From positions 1 to 58,036 of the forward strand of contig JADIIX010000140.1 in assembly GCA_027604505.1 (NCBI GenBank): a stretch of 58,036 bases of DNA. Reading direction: 5' to 3'. Shown piece after piece: positions 1 to 48,150 of this stretch (position 1 is its first letter; each line of letters opens with the position of its first letter). Source of the DNA: Gonapodya sp. JEL0774. Its lineage: Eukaryota. The position numbers and the translations under genes were made by a program. The notes below the pieces were generated by a model. It ran no database searches. It worked only from the letters and a program-made list of their open reading frames with translations, and was not told the origin of the DNA.

Positions 1-99
1 GCCCAGGGCGGTGTCCTCCCCAACATCCACTCTGTTCTCCTCCCCAAGAAGACCCCCGGCATTCTCCCGGGCGGCAAACCTGGCAAGGGTGACGCTTAA
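1..99 (+). CDS. H2A: Histone H2A, C-terminal end (5' part outside window)
   Basis: Frame 1 reads AQGGVLPNIHSVLLPKKTPGILPGGKPGKGDA then TAA at 97-99. AQGGVLPNI..LLPKK is the H2A docking-domain signature. Confidence 0.97.
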   Translation, partial: AQGGVLPNIHSVLLPKKTPGILPGGKPGKGDA

Positions 100-171
100 G
101 CGCCTTCCTCTTCCTGAGATTGATAAGGATTGATACAGTCGGGTGGAGAAACCAGCCCGCTGCTTGCAGAT

Positions 172-195
172 AACGGAATTTTTAAATTCCACCTC
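172..195 (+). promoter_or_regulatory. Histone 3'-UTR stem-loop-like element
   Basis: AAC-GGAATT(175-180)-TTTA(181-184)-AATTCC(185-190)-ACCTC, about 75 nt after the H2A stop. Perfect 6-bp stem, 4-nt UUUN loop, GG/CC base, U-A closing pair, AAC and ACC flanks. Confidence 0.75.
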
Positions 196-329
196 CTTTT
201 TAAATGCAATACGATTTTGAGTACCCTCATTTTGTTCCTCGTTCATATGTACTAGTGCACTTCATTGCAGAAAATACGTTCGGTGAATCCTATCAATATG
301 AACCCATGTACTTCTGCAATTAATTAACT

Positions 330-1900
330 ATTTGCTTCCACTTCGTGTACTCTTCGTGTGCAGCAAATGCCCTGTGGTGCCTTGTGAAACCTTGGGTCAT
401 GCGCGCTCCATGCCTTTAGCATACCAAACTACTGATCTGATGACCTTGGGCCTATCAGCTTTCACCAATCCCAACACCTCACAACACATTTGCGCGGCGG
501 CTTTGAACAACTCCCAGCGTGGCCTTGCAAATAAAAGGCGACACTAACTATCCACACCACGCGTCCAGCGCCTTGTCTGAAAGGTGCTTCAGCGAATGCA
601 GGTGATCTCACGCAGGCTGCTTTGACGGCTGCACTGGAACAACAAATTGCAAAATTTAATTATTGCACATTTGACATTGCATTTGTGTGATGCCACAAAA
701 TCCTGTCTCCACTTTGACATGTGACTGTGATGACTCTTGAAAAGCACGATGACTCACACGCGGCTTTGGGGGGCCGATGAATTATAAATACCTGCAGAAA
801 TTCATTCGAACCAGAAATGCTTGCAACATCTGAATATACGCATCCAACTGAGTCCAAAGACACAGAAGGTCCCAAAACTGTGGTGCTGGCTTTGTAAGTC
901 CGCAGTGTCTGCCGGTGCTTTGATTATGTACAACCTCATCACAACCCGTGGGAGTGCAGAAGCCTTAAAGCAGAACATCATCCTGACGATCCCGCAGATC
1001 ACGCTGGTACGAAATACCGGGCAGTAAGGGTACCTTCCCCGGACGATCGTCCCCTCTACGTTAGGGAGCCTGAGGTATGTATGATTCTTAAAGAAGTCTC
1101 CGGCATTGGTTGTTCCATTTTGACATCGACTACTATTGCCCAAAATACAAGGTGGTCTTTCATGCTGCGATCCAGCATCTGAACAAAGGGGATACGCTCG
1201 TTCTGTACAACGCACAAAAAGTATCCGGGCTGAGTGAGTAGCGAATTCACCCTTATTTAGTTTCAATGTTACATCAGATCACGATTCATGACTTTTTCAC
1301 ACAATCACAGCCCACACAGGCGATGATGCCGACCACGAGTGAGTGCAGCCATTTCTCTTGCCCGTTTTGATCATTACAATACATGCCTTCGCTTAAATAC
1401 ACGCCTTCGCTTAAATCCCCAGTCTATTTGAAGATAAGCAACGTCTCCGAGCTGTCGCTGAAGTTCTCAAGAAAGATATGACACAGGACCTTGCGGAGGT
1501 AAGTTGGTGATTGAAGGTGGAGTCGGGGGAGAGCTATGAAATTGATTGATCTGACCTAAATACCAAAGTCTATCAACTTCCAAGTTGATGCAAGTGTTGT
1601 ACCTCACGTAGCCACCGGAATACTCAGGTGAGTTTTGCCCTCTGCGTCCTCTTTCATGATCTGCAACCTCACCATGTTCAACTTGAACCAGATCGGTCAT
1701 ATCCAACTCTGCCTCGCTCCTCATCCTGCACGGTAAAGCCATTCGAAAAGGACATGGTAGAATTCTGGAAGAAGTGCTTGCTGCGTGTCCCCAAGGCACC
1801 GATGTGGTAGAGGTTCGGGGTGATGGGAAGTGCGTGCGGTGGTCGAAGAAAGCTTGAAAAAATTGTAGTTGTTTGAAAGCATATGCTTGATATTGTAGAT
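330..1900 (+). mobile_element. Possible decayed non-LTR (L1/Tx1-like) retrotransposon relic
   Basis: AT-richer region with broken frames. Fragments PKLWCW (~871-890) and LLPKIQGGLS (~1133-1162) resemble the SKLWY and LPKxxGGLG motifs of L1-type ORF2. Many stops. Confidence 0.3.
1381..1416 (+). repeat. 18-bp tandem duplication
   Basis: acatgccttcgcttaaat followed directly by acacgccttcgcttaaat (1 mismatch). Confidence 0.8.
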
Positions 1901-2247
1901 ATTCTTGGTTTGTGGAGTAATAATGATGGAATTTTGGTGTGAGAATTTTGTCCCTTGACCACTGCACCTCCAACAATTCAATCAATGTAGCATCAACTAC
2001 AATTCTAAGGACGAAATACCAATATGTTTAGCATTCTATCAGATGATCGAAACTCCGATGTGTGATGATTGATTGATGATGCCATGGTTCAGAGGGGATC
2101 CCATCTCTCCCAAATGTTCCCCGACGACGAGTAACGACTCCAATCATCCAGATTCTGCAAGTGAACATTCGAATTTCGAGTGAAAACGCGATTACGCAAC
2201 CTGCGGGAGTTGTTGAACACACCACGACACACTCTTCCACGGTCATT

Positions 2248-5200
2248 TCAACACCTTGTATCCACCGTCACCGCAACCGCCCCCGCGGGCAACCCATTCG
2301 CACTACCGTTCGCCGCACTCCTCTTCCTTGCTTCTCCCTGTCCCAACCCCGCAGAAATGTTCCTCACCCTCCTCCCTGTCACCTCCACCACTTCGCCCCC
2401 GGAAACCGCCACAGTTCCCGCACGACCGATATCCACCTCAACCTCTCCATCGTCCCACCCAAACACCCCCCCGCGGCGACTGGGCTCATCCGCGCAAGGA
2501 TCTCGCGCGGGTGGACCGACATGCAAGGGCGTGAGGGACAGCGCGATGGTTTCAGGTCTCGTAGGCACCCTGACGCGAACCTGAGCCGGGGTGGATGGAG
2601 ATCCCGGAAGAGTACCGGATACGGACACGGACACGGGCTCGCACGGTTCGAGCGGCGAAGCGGTGTCGACATTCATGGCGGCGATGGCGGCGAGGGAATC
2701 GTGGTGGGGGAGGCGGGGGCCTGAGTTGCCAGCGCCCCATTTGCCAGAGTGTTTTTCGGGTTCGGCGGAGTGGTGCCAGTGGTACCTTGTGGAGCACAGA
2801 GGTGGGACGTCGCAATGGGACATTTTTCAGGGTGTTGCATTTAACACTCAAACCATCATCAGTGTTCGCTTCCGAAGGCATCCTCAACTCACATGAAGTA
2901 CTCAGACCCTCCAATCAACAAACCACCCCCGATAATGTTTCCCAGTACCACCGCGGACTGGTTGTACCAGAACCCCGCCCACCTGGAAGTGGCCGAAATC
3001 GCGGTTCGAACACCAATCACAAGTGTGTGCCATGAGGGAGGGGGACGGAGTCGAGGAAATAAAAATAGGGATAAAGAAAGCGATGAAAGGCCGTGTCAGC
3101 TCTGGCCAAACGCTGGTATTGAACAACTACCGCTCAACACAACCACGGCAAACACCATAGCAACGCCCCCATCCTCCATCCAACACAAATAGGAGACACG
3201 TACGACACATTGGCCCCGTAATAGATCGAAATCGGGATGAACATCATGTTGGCGACGCAGTGTTCGTAGCCGATCACGGCGAAAGTGACCTGTCAGGTGC
3301 GAGTATGGAGAATGCGGTAGCAAGGGTTCGCGAAAGCGAAAGGGGAGCGAGGGTTACCGAAAATATGTGAGACGGCACGGTGAAGTGTCAGTTCGTTCCG
3401 GCGCACGCTTGTGCTTGTGATGGGGTGCATATTGCAAAACTCACTATCGGACTGAGAAAGGACCCACAAGTGCATCGACGGAGCCACACGAATACGGGAC
3501 GATGGCGATGGCGAGTCATGTAGAAGAGGGGGAAGGGTGCACAAGAGCACGCACGCGCAAGTTAGATCGGGTCCGTCCCCATTTCCACAATGGACCGAAC
3601 GTTAAATAAAAACAGTCCCGCTTGCCACAGCTGGCACCATCCCACGCCGCTTGCGTCACTCACATCCACATGGCGACGATCTTCCCCGTCACATCTCGAG
3701 CGGCCAGTCCGAGGAATATGGAGAGACACACGAGGGCGTTGGCGGGTATGCCGCGGAGGAAGAGGACGTGCCAGGGGAGGGTAGTCTGGTGTCGAAGGGG
3801 AAGAAAGCGGCGAAGCCGGCACGGGTGGTGGATCGGTGCGCAAAGTATAAGTATATTAGTCGAGTTGACGAGCATTCAACATTTATGGACTGCGCCGCAA
3901 AGGGAACCGCTCCGGCCCGTCCATCTCACCTTGAGTACCCCAATGGCCGATACGTAGGTCAAGTACGGCTCGTTCTTGAAGATCTCCGTCTGGTAGGCGA
4001 ACAAGTACCCGCACAGAAGACACGCGGCGAGGTTGGAGAGGTACACGAGCAGCCAGTTGCGGAGAAGACCTAGGATGGAGATGCGGCGATTGAGGAGGGA
4101 GACGACGAGGATCACTTTTTGTAGGGCGAAGGAAGACGGGGCAAGGAGGGGGGCAGGATGAGCCGTACGTACGTACTGCACAGACGTAAGCGAGACTGGA
4201 ATACATACTGGTGTTCCCGGTGAAGAGCTCTCCTCCAAAGAGCACGATATAGAAGATCCCGACTGAGCAACCGAGCACCGAGGTCGTGCGCAGAATGGAG
4301 CAACCAAACCCGAGGAGAGGGAGACGGAGCGAAAAAACCAGGAAGCGTACAGTGTTTCGTCAGTCCACCCCACGTTCGTCCCCCCATCACGTTCCCTTAT
4401 CCCCCATGAAACTCACCCGGAAACGTCACCCCCAACAACACCTTGCTCACAGCCGGGTACGCCGCGCGCACCTCCGGCGGTAGCCCGCCGCCGGCCGTAA
4501 GCGCAAACAGGCATCCCTGGGAGACGAAGAAGCCGGCCAGGAGGCCGAGAACTTGGATTAGGAGAGAGCGAGGAGGGCGGTATGAGGATGGGAAATGGAG
4601 AGGGTGCGGGCAGGAGGGCGAAGGAAGGTGAACGTACATATGGTCTTGTCCCACGGTATGTCGTTTTTCTTCACCCCGAGGTTGGCGACGATGGTCTGTG
4701 GTTGGAAAGGGGTGGTGGGAGGTGGTGAGAAAAGTGAGATAAGCGAGTGCAGAGCGCCACCAGCAACAGCGGTGGTATGTGGCGGTGGGTAATATTCGGG
4801 GACAGACATCACAACAGCACACCCCGACCACCACACCACAGCCGACGTGGAAGGCGGGGAGCGGGACGGGCAGGCAGGTAGGCCGGTACACCGGCGCGGT
4901 GGGGAAACGGGGCCCAAGCAGTCCGTTGGCACCACAACCCCGAGTTACGAAGCACCGAGACGCGAGTCAATTCTCGCACCGACCTCGTATGCCCCGCTCG
5001 GATGACGGCGTTTTTGTCCCTCCCCCGGCCCATGGGACATTTTGTGGCCCCCGCGTTCGGTGACACTCCACGTGCCATGCCCGCCGCCTCCAACCTCGAG
5101 ACCCCGGCCGCCCCAACCCACCTCCAACGCCTCCCCCTTATTGATATCGTCGATTTTCCCCTTCTCCCCCCCTGCCTTGTGGCCAAACCCCGCCTCTTCC

Positions 5201-38095: not shown

Positions 38096-39518
38096 ATGTC
38101 GGATCAACGCAAGGACGCCGACCTGATCGAAGCAGTCGAGACTGGCAGTCTGGCTCTTGTCAAAAAGGCTCTCGCGGAAAGCGCAGACCCGAACGCCAGG
38201 AAAAGAATCACGTTGACAGTCACACTCGACAAAAATCGATCCGGACAAACCAAAACCGACACAGTCCTCGCGGAGTCAGTGATCGCAATCGCCGTCATCC
38301 ACGCATCCCCAGAAATCGTCGAAACACTCCTCCAGGCGGGCGCTGATGCGAGTCGTCCAGTCGAATGGAGTCGCACGTGGGCGCCAAGCCAGTACTGGAG
38401 CGGTGGCAACTGGTCCGGTCGCTGGCAGGCCATCAGAACGTTTCGGTCGGCACTTGCCTTGGCATTAACAAATGGAACACTTCTCATGAACAAGAAGGGT
38501 GGTCATGTCCGCATCGACACACCACTCGCAGATAGCGATGCTTTTGTCAGAGTTACTCACCAGCCTCGTCTCGATGTTGTCGCGGTATTGCTGCGGTATG
38601 CCCCAGGTGCAATCGACGCTGACCTCTTCAGCAATGCCAAGGCTCTTGGCGACAACCGTTTCGCAGCTCTCATCGAGAAACGCCTCGAACAAGAATACGA
38701 AACTGCTGTCACCACGGTGGCCACCTCACGTGGAAACGCAGAAGACTTCAAATCGCAGGTCGAAGCGCTCGCGACTCAGGTGGAGCAGCTGACGACGAGG
38801 TTCCTCGCTGACACCGACCGGCTCCAGCAGAGGGTGAAGGACCTCGAAGGCCGCAACGCGGAGCTCGTGCGGCGTGTAGAAAGCACGTCACAACAGACTG
38901 CAAGGATCGACCAGGCGACGGTTCAACTTTCGTCCAAGTTGGACCAGACCAGCGCCCATTTGTCCACGAAAATCGAACAGGCCACATCCCAGTTCGGGCA
39001 ATCGGCCACCCAAACGTCCACCCGTCTTGCCCGCCTCGAGCAGCAGGTGGCGGCCCTCCAGGCCCACCAGCCGTCGAGCCACGCCCACACGCCTCCGATC
39101 GACGTAAAGCGGCTGATGCACGTGGTGGCCAATTTCGTTCCATATGATACGGATGAGATCGCACTCAGTGTAGGGCAGATGGTGTTTTGTAACTTGGAGT
39201 ACCACGACGGCTGGGGGTCGGTGAGTTGGCAACGTTGATGAAAGCCGTACCTCCTTCCGTCTGTGCATTATTCACATATGAATCATTCTCTTTGCTCCCC
39301 GATCGCGCTAGGGTCTCAACACGTCCACGGGGCTGTCGGGCCACTTCCCCATGGTGTGCATTTCCGACTCCACAACGACGATCCAATCTCCCGTTTCCAT
39401 CAGCGCACGAACATCGTCAATCATCCCATCTATGAGGATGGCGCCGCCCCCCCCATCGGTGGCGAGGGACGTGCCCAGCACCAGGGTGTTTGGTGACGTC
39501 AGGGGACCCGGCGCATGA
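38096..39518 (+). CDS. Ankyrin repeat, coiled-coil and SH3 protein
   Basis: Ankyrin-like LIEAVETGSLALVKKAL..SADPN and EIVETLLQAGAD, heptad coiled coil, and SH3 VVANFVPYDTDEIAL...DGWGS-GLN...GHFPMVCI split by one intron. Confidence 0.88.
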
Positions 39519-44906: not shown

Positions 44907-45608
44907 TCAACCATTTTGGAGCTGCTTCAATTTGCTTGGAACAGGTGCAATTAGCCGGCGACAAAACGCCTTGTGATATTTCCGATGTCCCTTTGGGCAG
45001 GCCGCAGAACAATATCTCGCAGATCGACATCCGGAGCAGAGCTTCAAGATTGTAGGGTAACTTGGCCCGTGTCCGAACACGTCCATCTTTTTCGCCAGAG
45101 CACAAGAAAGGTACGTGCATCGATCCGCTTCAAAGCGGTACATTGTCGAATCCCTGTTAATAAAACTATCATGGAAGCCGTCCTCACAGTCCGTGAATCC
45201 CGTAACCCCGACACGGGAATCCCCTAGTTGGTGGGTCTCGTCGGGAAGAGGGAATCGAGCAGTTCCCAGCTCCTCGAAGAAGCTCGCATGGTGGGGAGAA
45301 AATAGCTCAGTACGAATCGCGAAACGGGAAGGGGGGTGCGCGGCAGTGAGGAGGAGGTCAAGAATGCCCCAGCAATCACTGGCGCATCGAACCACCAAAT
45401 CGTAATTCTGTGTTCGCACATAGTGCAACACTAAATCCATAATGTCCGACAAGTTCTGTGGGGTGATGCTCCGAGCTAAAGCGGCCACCAAGTCCCGGTG
45501 TGCTTGGTGAAGTGGCTTTGGATGACGAAAGTGAAACCAAATTGCATAAAATCGGCATCGTTTCTCATGAGCTCGTTTGTAGTTAACATCAGTGGGGCAT
45601 CGGCTCAA
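44907..45608 (-). pseudogene. MYND zinc-finger protein, probably truncated or degenerate
   Basis: LKLCSGCRSARYCSAACPKGHRKYHKAFC is a MYND finger, but the consensus Q and W are replaced by P and R. No ATG at the ORF start, and the 5' end abuts the divergent gene at 45697. Confidence 0.55.
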
Positions 45609-45696
45609 TAAATATCCGCGGATGCAAGTTGGCTGTGTTGGCCCTGAGTGTCCAAGCTTGCAGCTCTGGTTGAATCAGTTCTCGCCTTTCCCCAGG

Positions 45697-48150
45697 ATGA
45701 TGGAGCCATCAGAGTCCCCGGAACATCCGCTCGCAACATCGCCTGAGCTTCGTGGATCAATCTCACCGCCACCATTCGTTGATGGAGCATCGGCGACTGC
45801 ACAGACACACAACAGCGGCCCTCAATTCATCAAACTGATCGGGGCACCACCTCCAAACAAACCCGAACCGTTCGCAGTACCTTCGCCCTCACGAATAATT
45901 GTGGAGCCTGTCGTGGATGTCTTGGACGCAGGGTCCGACGAACCTTTCACGTTGGAGCCGTTCTTGTCCCTTATAAAGGCACACGCTTTGGCGGGCAAAG
46001 AGTTCGTCTTGGCCCGCGTCAACACCGTGGATCCTTCGAATGAATCACGTTCTTACTACTCATATTACTCCGCACATTTCATCAACAAGGTGCTGTTTAG
46101 AACACAGCCGGAAGCAGGACTGTTACATAGAATGAGGGCACGAAACGTGAGTTCATTTTTGGGGGGAGGCGGTGTTGAGGCTTTGTCCAAGAAAGAACAA
46201 ATGCTATTATTGCTGGCAAGTCGTGAGAGAAGTTCTGAAAGGTGGTCCGTGGTGCTCATTCTCAAAACCTTTCCCATCCACCCTCAAATCTGTGATCATC
46301 ATACGGACCACAGCCCTTGACCAACACTGTGATCGTCGGTGACGTTCATTATTTTTCCATAACACCCGAATCAGCTCTTGCGACTCTTTCCCTGACAAGG
46401 GACTCTCCCTCTCGAGACAAGCCACCTTCCCCGTCTCGACCAACACTCCACGACATTCTCAGAACCGCAACAGGCCGGTCTCCCACCAGCTTGCATCCAC
46501 CTCTGGGCCAGCAATCTCAAACGGATGAAACTGTGGAGCTACCACCCTCCCCACTGACTGATTCAAGCGCTTCGACGGGCTCACCATCGGGTTTCGGCAT
46601 CCACGACAATGCCCCGCGTGGTCGCGCTGACGGGCTCACAGCTATTTTCACTCACGGGAACTTTTCATACGACAATATCTCTGCCTACGTGCACGGATTC
46701 CTCCCCCTTCCCGCCAGTCCCTCCAACCCCCGTAGTCAAGGGAGACCCCCCAGTCCCGCTCGCTCACTGTTCACGTCTGGCTTCTCCTCATCATCATATC
46801 ATTCTCGACCCGGTAGTCCGGATTCATTTCGATCTACTGACACCCGAGTTGCTCGCGTCAGATTCACACTCAAGCCTTCGTTCCAGCTTGCTACAGCCAA
46901 GGAGTCGGCTCGGATGGCAAAAATGGCGAACGGAGAGTTCGAGCTGAATAAAATTGACCTCGGCTGGCGAAGAATGAATCCTGACGGAACGTCAATGAGC
47001 GACGATGTGCACCGTGCAGCACCAGACGTGGCACATCGCTACCCACAACACACCTTGGCGAGGCGAAATCTCTACTCACACTCGTTCGCAAACTCGCCGG
47101 CGGCGGCTACGTCCCCAGGCGAGTGGATGAGAACGGAAGGCCGTGATCTTCTCAGAGAGACGATGGTGGGGAATGAAACGGGGGCACATTCGCGGCCAAC
47201 GTCTGGTGTGATCAAGCGCGCTCCCCGTAAGGCGTCGGGTGTGGGAACTCTGCCACCCCCCGTACTAATAGTCAATGAGCAAGACAAGGCACCTCGTATG
47301 CCAAAGTCCAAACTCTCTGACAATGCTCTTTCTGCCACTGCCAATTCGTCTTCAAACGACCAAGCTTCCCCGGTGACATTCAACCTCCTCTTCCACTCGA
47401 CGGACGACGATTTTCTCATGCACGCCTCTATTCGCGCATACTTCAAGGCCAACGCGCTCGACCCCAACGACGCGGTATTGTTCACTTTGAACTCGACAAC
47501 ATCACGTCCCACGTCCGAAGCCGGCGACCAGGGCACAGACCACCCGCTTTTGGATGGGATTCAAGTGTATGAGTTTGAAGATGGGGACTATTTGGGGGGT
47601 GGGCCTATACCGGTCCCCGAACCGGACTTTGGATCAGGCCTACGGGGTTTGATCAGGAAGAGCTTGTGGAAATTTCAAAAGCTCAGCACCGGGGTCAAGT
47701 TCCTCATGTTCATATACTTCCCTCTTGGGTTTTTGTTGGTGAAACTGTGTAGGTGACACTTTTGATGAGGCATTTCCATTGATTCTCGACGCACTTCTAA
47801 CTGTCTGTTGTCCCGTTTGTCCGTTCTCCGCCCCCACGACTTCAGTTGTCCCGGATGCTATTTTCTACATTGTTGGTGAGTATGCGGGCTCCAGTTTCAT
47901 ACTGGAATCGCCCGATTAAACGATCGCTATTTGCTCTTTTCAGCATTCTTTGTCGTAGTAACCATGGTGACCTTGGCTATAATCTGCGCGATGTGACGAA
48001 GAACCTGAGAGTATCGTTGTACGTGTATCTCGGATCACTCGCAGGAGCACTAATGAATTTCATCGCACTGAATAATTGTGAACGTGATCTTCCGTGCTCT
48101 GCTATATGTTCGCCTTTGATGATCCACAGACTGCACAAGTCCCCGTGTTC
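45697..48150 (+). CDS. Conserved hypothetical protein (DUF5092-like) with C-terminal TM helices
   Basis: EPFTLEPF...FVLARVNTVDP...YYSYYSAHFINKVLFRTQPEAGLLHRMRARN-PLTN..VGDVHYF resembles a family I recall from microsporidia and early fungi. 3' end approximate. Confidence 0.7.

Follow-up and report, generated by a model that had tools for sequence, protein, structure and literature searches.

Histone stem-loops with a dedicated binding protein, SLBP, have recently been described in early-diverging fungi, and these are the closest known systems to the locus treated here. Zhao, Bond and Ni Leathlobhair (bioRxiv 10.64898/2026.10.14.759114, below the fungal preprint) report SLBP in 124 fungal species, and describe, for Cryptomycota, Chytridiomycota and Blastocladiomycota, this protein as well as stem-loops and poly(A) tails. 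The fungal transcripts that they surveyed end in poly(A); for Allomyces H2A and Catenaria H4 the tail follows the stem-loop, in the Catenaria gene without a poly(A) signal, and GLD2-like enzymes are proposed for such tails. The same preprint reports hairpins in fungi that have no SLBP, and decoupling and erosion in Chytridiomycota. According to its survey, Lsm10 and Lsm11 never occur together in one fungus, and Rozella has Lsm11, a FLASH-like domain and a U7-like RNA. The survey took in all fungal histone records of NCBI, and its supplements may include Gonapodya; its main text has no occurrence of Gonapodya or of any name in Monoblephar-. We found no paper on Gonapodya and SLBP in the literature, where this preprint was the one work on fungi that our searches gave.

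In animals the stem-loops fold with −7 to −10 kcal/mol and lie at a median of 30 nt from the stop, by the figures of the fungal preprint. The structure of the human SLBP complex, as presented in PMC10388802, has base-specific hydrogen bonds only at the G of the second stem pair, and the minimal human site described there consists of the hairpin, two adenines on its 5' side and one on its 3' side. The CC of the stem is described as invariant (PMC4604434).

We analysed a 58,036-nt contig of Gonapodya sp. JEL0774; this whole stretch is called the window, and features are on its forward (+) strand unless marked otherwise. The hairpin that it carries behind a histone H2A gene is a real and well-preserved histone stem-loop, and its host is a monoblepharid fungus. 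The phenomenon is already reported for early-diverging fungi, with monoblepharids unnamed in the main text of that preprint. A preliminary description of this DNA had left room for the system being unreported, and that suggestion lapses, early-diverging fungi being already covered by the fungal preprint; its idea of SLBP combined with polyadenylation would, for Gonapodya, match what the preprint reports for sister groups.

With the early-fungal loci classed as SLBP-SL or SLBP-SL-PAS, the Gonapodya locus shares a stem of 6 bp with G as its second base, a loop of 4 nt with U as its third, a variable distance from the stop, the lack of a clear U7 element and a zoosporic fungal host. It differs in belonging to Monoblepharomycota, which like Gonapodya itself goes unnamed in the preprint's main text, and in a core that lies nearer to the animal consensus (10/16 positions) than the early-fungal mean does (5.8/16, a figure obtained with another reference). 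As poly(A) hexamers are absent from the 300 nt past the stop, it would represent the SLBP-SL rather than the SLBP-SL-PAS state, if SLBP is present. The locus alone overturns nothing. It contributes one monoblepharid case to a recent claim, not yet peer-reviewed, by which zoosporic fungi retained the ancestral stem-loop and its loss came later, in Dikarya.

The H2A gene end and its hairpin

The window opens inside the H2A gene, whose last 32 codons and TAA stop occupy positions 1–99 (stop at 97–99; Pfam PF16211, Histone_H2A_C, E 2.2e-10, on the translation); the 5' part of the gene is truncated by the contig start. NCBI taxonomy places Gonapodya in Monoblepharomycota, within the clade chytridiomyceta, and the host is thus a zoosporic early-diverging fungus outside Dikarya, as had been supposed for this H2A. 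We rejected an intron beginning at the GT at 89, which would excise the stop or the hairpin: all 11 of its acceptors lead to tails of 17–54 residues after LLPKK, with ends that are not those of a histone.

The translated H2A tail (55–99) terminates in GKGDA, and the SQ motif is absent from it. Yeast H2A bears an SQ phosphorylation motif, and animals and algae have canonical H2A and H2A.X as separate genes. Gonapodya may likewise encode canonical H2A and H2A.X separately.

From the stop to the first base of the stem there are 75 nt in total, comprising a 3' UTR spacer (100–169) and the 5' flank AUAAC (170–174), which has A at −2 and −3 and C at −1, where the consensus of the Rfam alignment has A. 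Then come the 5' arm GGAAUU (175–180), the 4-nt loop UUUA (181–184), whose first and third bases are U, the 3' arm AAUUCC (185–190), which is the full complement of 175–180, and the 3' flank ACCUC (191–195). The ACC of this flank is the Rfam consensus and is invariant in the comparison hairpins introduced below (17/17 aligned). G176 is the second-pair G, the base read by Arg181 of SLBP in the human complex (PMC10388802). The element GGAATT-TTTA-AATTCC-ACC (175–193) thus lies 75 nt past the H2A stop exactly as the preliminary description had it.

All six stem pairs are Watson-Crick, and the closing pair is U-A. Folding of 100–260 gives pairing probabilities of 0.93–0.96 for five pairs and about 0.70 for the closing U-A, and the predicted folds of all contexts tried, from the 16-mer alone up to 100–260, contain the hairpin. 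The fold is weak, at −4.7 kcal/mol for a 26-mer containing the hairpin, and the region 97–215 as a whole (119 nt) folds no better than its shuffles (z −0.52).

The hairpin agrees with the Rfam consensus core at 10 of 16 positions, and the six differences all fall within pairs 3–5. Each of these three pairs is altered on both sides (A-U, A-U and U-A in Gonapodya; C-G, U-A and C-G in animals), yet each is still Watson-Crick. It had been proposed that the central pairs diverge from the animal consensus while still pairing because structure is under selection; the divergence and the pairing are as described, and selection is likely. The diagnostic positions are all present: a G-C second stem pair, U as first and third base of the loop, the U-A closing pair and the 3' flanking A. 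The two adenines that belong immediately 5' of the stem in the minimal human SLBP site are not there, the sequence at this place being AAC. In sum, the likeness to the animal stem-loop (RF00032) lies in the GG...CC stem, the U-A closing pair, the UUUN loop, the ACC flank and the site past a histone stop, whereas the Gonapodya element differs in its weaker fold, its 75-nt spacing, the C adjoining the stem, the lack of an HDE and an Rfam score of 24.7 bits that is below gathering.

Two minor features were seen nearby. The 9-mer TTTTTAAAT at 179–187, from the loop and 3' arm, is repeated 18 nt downstream at 197–205, past the ACC flank; it is of low complexity, and the repeat may be fortuitous or left by a local duplication. 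A second hairpin, GC-rich and imperfect, is predicted at 136–162, between the stop and the stem-loop.

Chance, homology and the green-lineage loci

The full-length model of the Rfam family Histone3 (RF00032) matches positions 170–216 with a score of 24.7 bits and E 6.5e-4 when 1–3000 is searched and E 6.5e-5 when 100–400 is searched, both values being corrected for 4227 families. The Rfam gathering score of 34 is not reached by this match, and an Rfam scan of the whole window, which uses stricter filters, does not list it.

The null model consisted of the 300 nt downstream of the H2A stop in 20,000 dinucleotide-shuffled versions. A perfect hairpin with a 6-bp stem and 4-nt loop, of any sequence, appeared in 1448 of them; with G at stem position 2 and U at loop position 3 also demanded, the count fell to 80, and with stem G1, U6 and loop U1 added, to 0. 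The window itself contains 15 perfect hairpins of this geometry, and the one at 175–190 alone passes the strictest tier (G1, G2, U6 and loop U1/U3). Together with the Histone3 match (E 6.5e-5), the 0/20,000 at the diagnostic tier upholds the earlier assignment of the hairpin to the histone type.

For comparison we assembled histone loci from metagenomes. A search with the Gonapodya H2A tail found 10 proteins; at 32 residues the tail was too short as a locus query, and a similarly tailed H2A, P0136, served in its place. The P0136 search, in which the best 80 of 477 were confirmed, gave 79 metagenome loci. For eight loci (seven of them in the collection) named relatives were looked up, and these were mostly green algae and land plants; one of the clusters carries no organism names, and one entry is labelled bacterium. 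Among the 79 loci we recognised no relative from fungi, as judged from the eight looked up by name. The comparison loci carry no information on conservation inside Gonapodya.

Hairpins are frequent behind the histone genes of these loci. By a relaxed rule they follow the stop in 49/75 H2A, 10/12 H2B, 3/4 H3 and 16/16 H4 genes, counts that omit genes with less than 120 nt downstream. We also formulated a strict rule, after the comparison loci had been seen: a perfect 6-bp stem starting GG, a loop of 4–5 nt, and CC then ACC. It finds a hairpin behind 78 of 106 histone stops, at 23–96 nt, and in 16 of these 78 the distance is at least 60 nt. Across the 79 loci (937,688 strand-bases) the strict rule has 84 matches; 80 lie no more than 300 nt past a histone stop, leaving four in the remaining 906,170 bases. 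In the window, both strands included, its one match is the hairpin at 175–190.

Histone3 matches were obtained in three of eight comparison loci, at 19–27 bits, all sub-gathering. The 75-nt spacing and the sub-gathering score of the Gonapodya hairpin are therefore ordinary outside animals. Its AAC 5' flank also has counterparts, as AAC and AAU flanks occur in the comparison loci. Green-lineage stem-loops thus share with it the GG...CC-ACC frame, a variable but paired middle, the flank AAC or AAU, a position within 23–96 nt of the stop and sub-gathering scores. They differ in that their stems begin GGU and their loops, of 4 or 5 nt, are variable and frequently lack U3, whereas Gonapodya has GGA and the animal-like UUUA; at pair 3 the Gonapodya stem is unlike all 11 of the 11 comparison stems. 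A frame of GG...CC-ACC in which the middle positions are free but paired is common to animals, the green lineage and Gonapodya. The label "metazoan-style" given to the hairpin earlier is too narrow, since green-lineage histone genes bear the same design.

A covariance model built from 17 comparison (green-lineage) loci, with the window excluded, ranks the hairpin second of 25 weak matches in the window (E 1.5, not significant); within 100–400 it ranks first (E 0.008). This result agrees with homology without deciding it. In the alignment of comparison hairpins, four of six pairs show double changes, against 0/500 shuffles, a figure that is circular (the rows were chosen for pairing) and is not evidence. 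Taking the Histone3 match, the shuffles and the background of the strict rule together, we consider it very probable that the hairpin is a true homologue of the histone stem-loop, retained by selection.

Several observations on the comparison material stand apart from the Gonapodya locus. Clustered green-lineage histone genes (L009, L025, L052, L060 and others) have a common stem-loop with a 5-nt loop, ATTTC or ATCTC, and such hairpins would escape a screen for 6-bp stems with 4-nt loops such as that of the fungal preprint. A viral contig of 911,622 nt (L080) has H2A-like and H2B-like histone sequences, and a stem-loop after its H2B is absent. A short degenerate SLBP motif gave no match in viral contigs and none in prokaryote genomes; a looser motif gave 14 matches, none of them SLBP-like on reading.

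Ending of the H2A message

Downstream of the hairpin lies a U/A-rich region (196–350) with no HDE and none of nine poly(A) hexamers, which presumably holds the cleavage or poly(A) site. The preliminary description had noted that no purine-rich U7-binding element follows the hairpin, and the sequence agrees: the HDE-type words AAAGAG and AAGAG do not occur in 1–900, and purines make up 9 of the 20 bases at 196–215. The AAA at 202–204 would satisfy the very lax HDE rule of the fungal preprint. None of the nine types of poly(A) hexamer is found within 300 nt of the stop; the first downstream AATAAA, a candidate distal poly(A) signal, is at 530–535, 430 nt past the stop. UGUA words occur at 248, 307 and 346, three where composition predicts about 1.5, which is not an excess. 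The absence of hexamers says little, because fungal poly(A) sites are frequently without them.

The explanation that we favour, with some reserve, is an ancestral histone stem-loop to which a fungal SLBP binds, in a message polyadenylated downstream without U7. The stem-loop behind the Gonapodya H2A gene would then be a likely inheritance from the eukaryotic ancestor, and a putative Gonapodya SLBP would be likely to bind the hairpin at 175–190; that the hairpin is so bound we regard as probable. The H2A RNA would include the hairpin and end by polyadenylation further downstream, not by U7 cleavage, and such a poly(A) end is, overall, somewhat favoured. The tail may come from a non-canonical U/A-rich signal or from a non-canonical polymerase, and the hairpin may act on stability, export or translation.

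Several findings speak for this explanation: the Histone3 match, the shuffles and the strict-rule background already given; the pairing preserved through all six differences in pairs 3–5; the second-pair G, which is kept; spacings of at least 60 nt in 16/78 comparison loci and sub-gathering scores in 3/8; and the fungal SLBPs, the tailed stem-loop transcripts and the lack of any fungus with both Lsm10 and Lsm11 in the fungal preprint. Against it stand the weak stem (−4.7 kcal/mol), the 75-nt spacing, the C at −1 and the want of a hexamer in 300 nt; further, the sub-gathering Rfam score, the absence of the match from the whole-window scan and the E of 1.5 under the green-lineage model; and, finally, the hairpins that the fungal preprint reports in SLBP-less fungi.

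Some of these same points would suit a relic, that is, a true descendant of the stem-loop that has lost its SLBP partner and its role and now sits in an ordinary polyadenylated mRNA. The weak stem, the long spacing and the C at −1 all fit, as do the decoupling and erosion described for Chytridiomycota in the fungal preprint. However, all six pairs are intact despite three having changed on both sides relative to the Rfam consensus, and the diagnostic positions and ACC are intact as well; an element long unselected would be expected to have decayed. We think a relic unlikely.

A further alternative is that the stem-loop forms the mature 3' end, made without U7, so that the RNA stops a few bases past the hairpin and either has no tail or has one that a non-canonical polymerase adds directly. 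Both the HDE and, within 300 nt, the poly(A) hexamers are missing, although, as noted, hexamer absence says little in fungi. Precedent comes from Drosophila oocytes, which are described as showing SLBP-dependent, U7-independent polyadenylation at the stem-loop (PMC11997800), and the GLD2-like enzymes proposed in the fungal preprint could be cited on the same side; the fungal transcripts in that preprint, however, bear poly(A) tails. We give this ending a small chance.

Canonical cleavage by SLBP and the U7 snRNP, with a diverged U7 RNA, would accord with the canonical geometry of the hairpin and with the Lsm11, FLASH-like domain and U7-like RNA of Rozella, but the purine-rich HDE is absent and the fungal preprint has no fungus with both Lsm10 and Lsm11, so we hold it to be very improbable. 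Equally improbable is that the hairpin is a chance A/U-rich structure, or part of a foreign (algal) fragment fused to the contig end: perfect hairpins of the same size do arise in 1448/20,000 shuffles and 15 times in the window, and the H2A gene is at the very contig edge, yet no shuffle reached the diagnostic tier, the strict rule has a background of at most 4 in 906,170 bases, the stem differs from 11/11 comparison stems at pair 3, and no sign of a join was seen.

The Gonapodya locus is a clean test case for a U7-free message ending, because the hairpin is well kept while the HDE and any nearby poly(A) hexamer are absent. If, as in the alternative given a small chance above, an SLBP-bound hairpin itself sets the monoblepharid 3' end without U7 or a poly(A) signal, this would be a third route to histone 3' ends, and one in a fungal phylum so far undescribed for the SLBP/stem-loop pathway.

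Other genes of the window

A TATAAA at 783 is followed by a spliced gene, at about 783–1800, which would limit the extent of the H2A transcript. On reading, the exons of this gene resembled a universal-stress-protein domain; none of five fragments from it had a Pfam match. Far from the histone gene, an ORF of the DUF3500 family (PF12006; 52392–53438, minus strand) has ascomycete and basidiomycete proteins as its top named matches, at about 60% identity, and no zoosporic fungus is named among the 120 matches listed; this distribution may reflect patchy retention or horizontal transfer, and the ORF was uninformative as to the host lineage. An ankyrin/SH3-type ORF at 38096–39235 has six matches, all of them from Gonapodya, and one of these (P0121) is 100% identical. 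A DUF5092 match lies at 45583–46317 (Pfam, E 2.3e-15).
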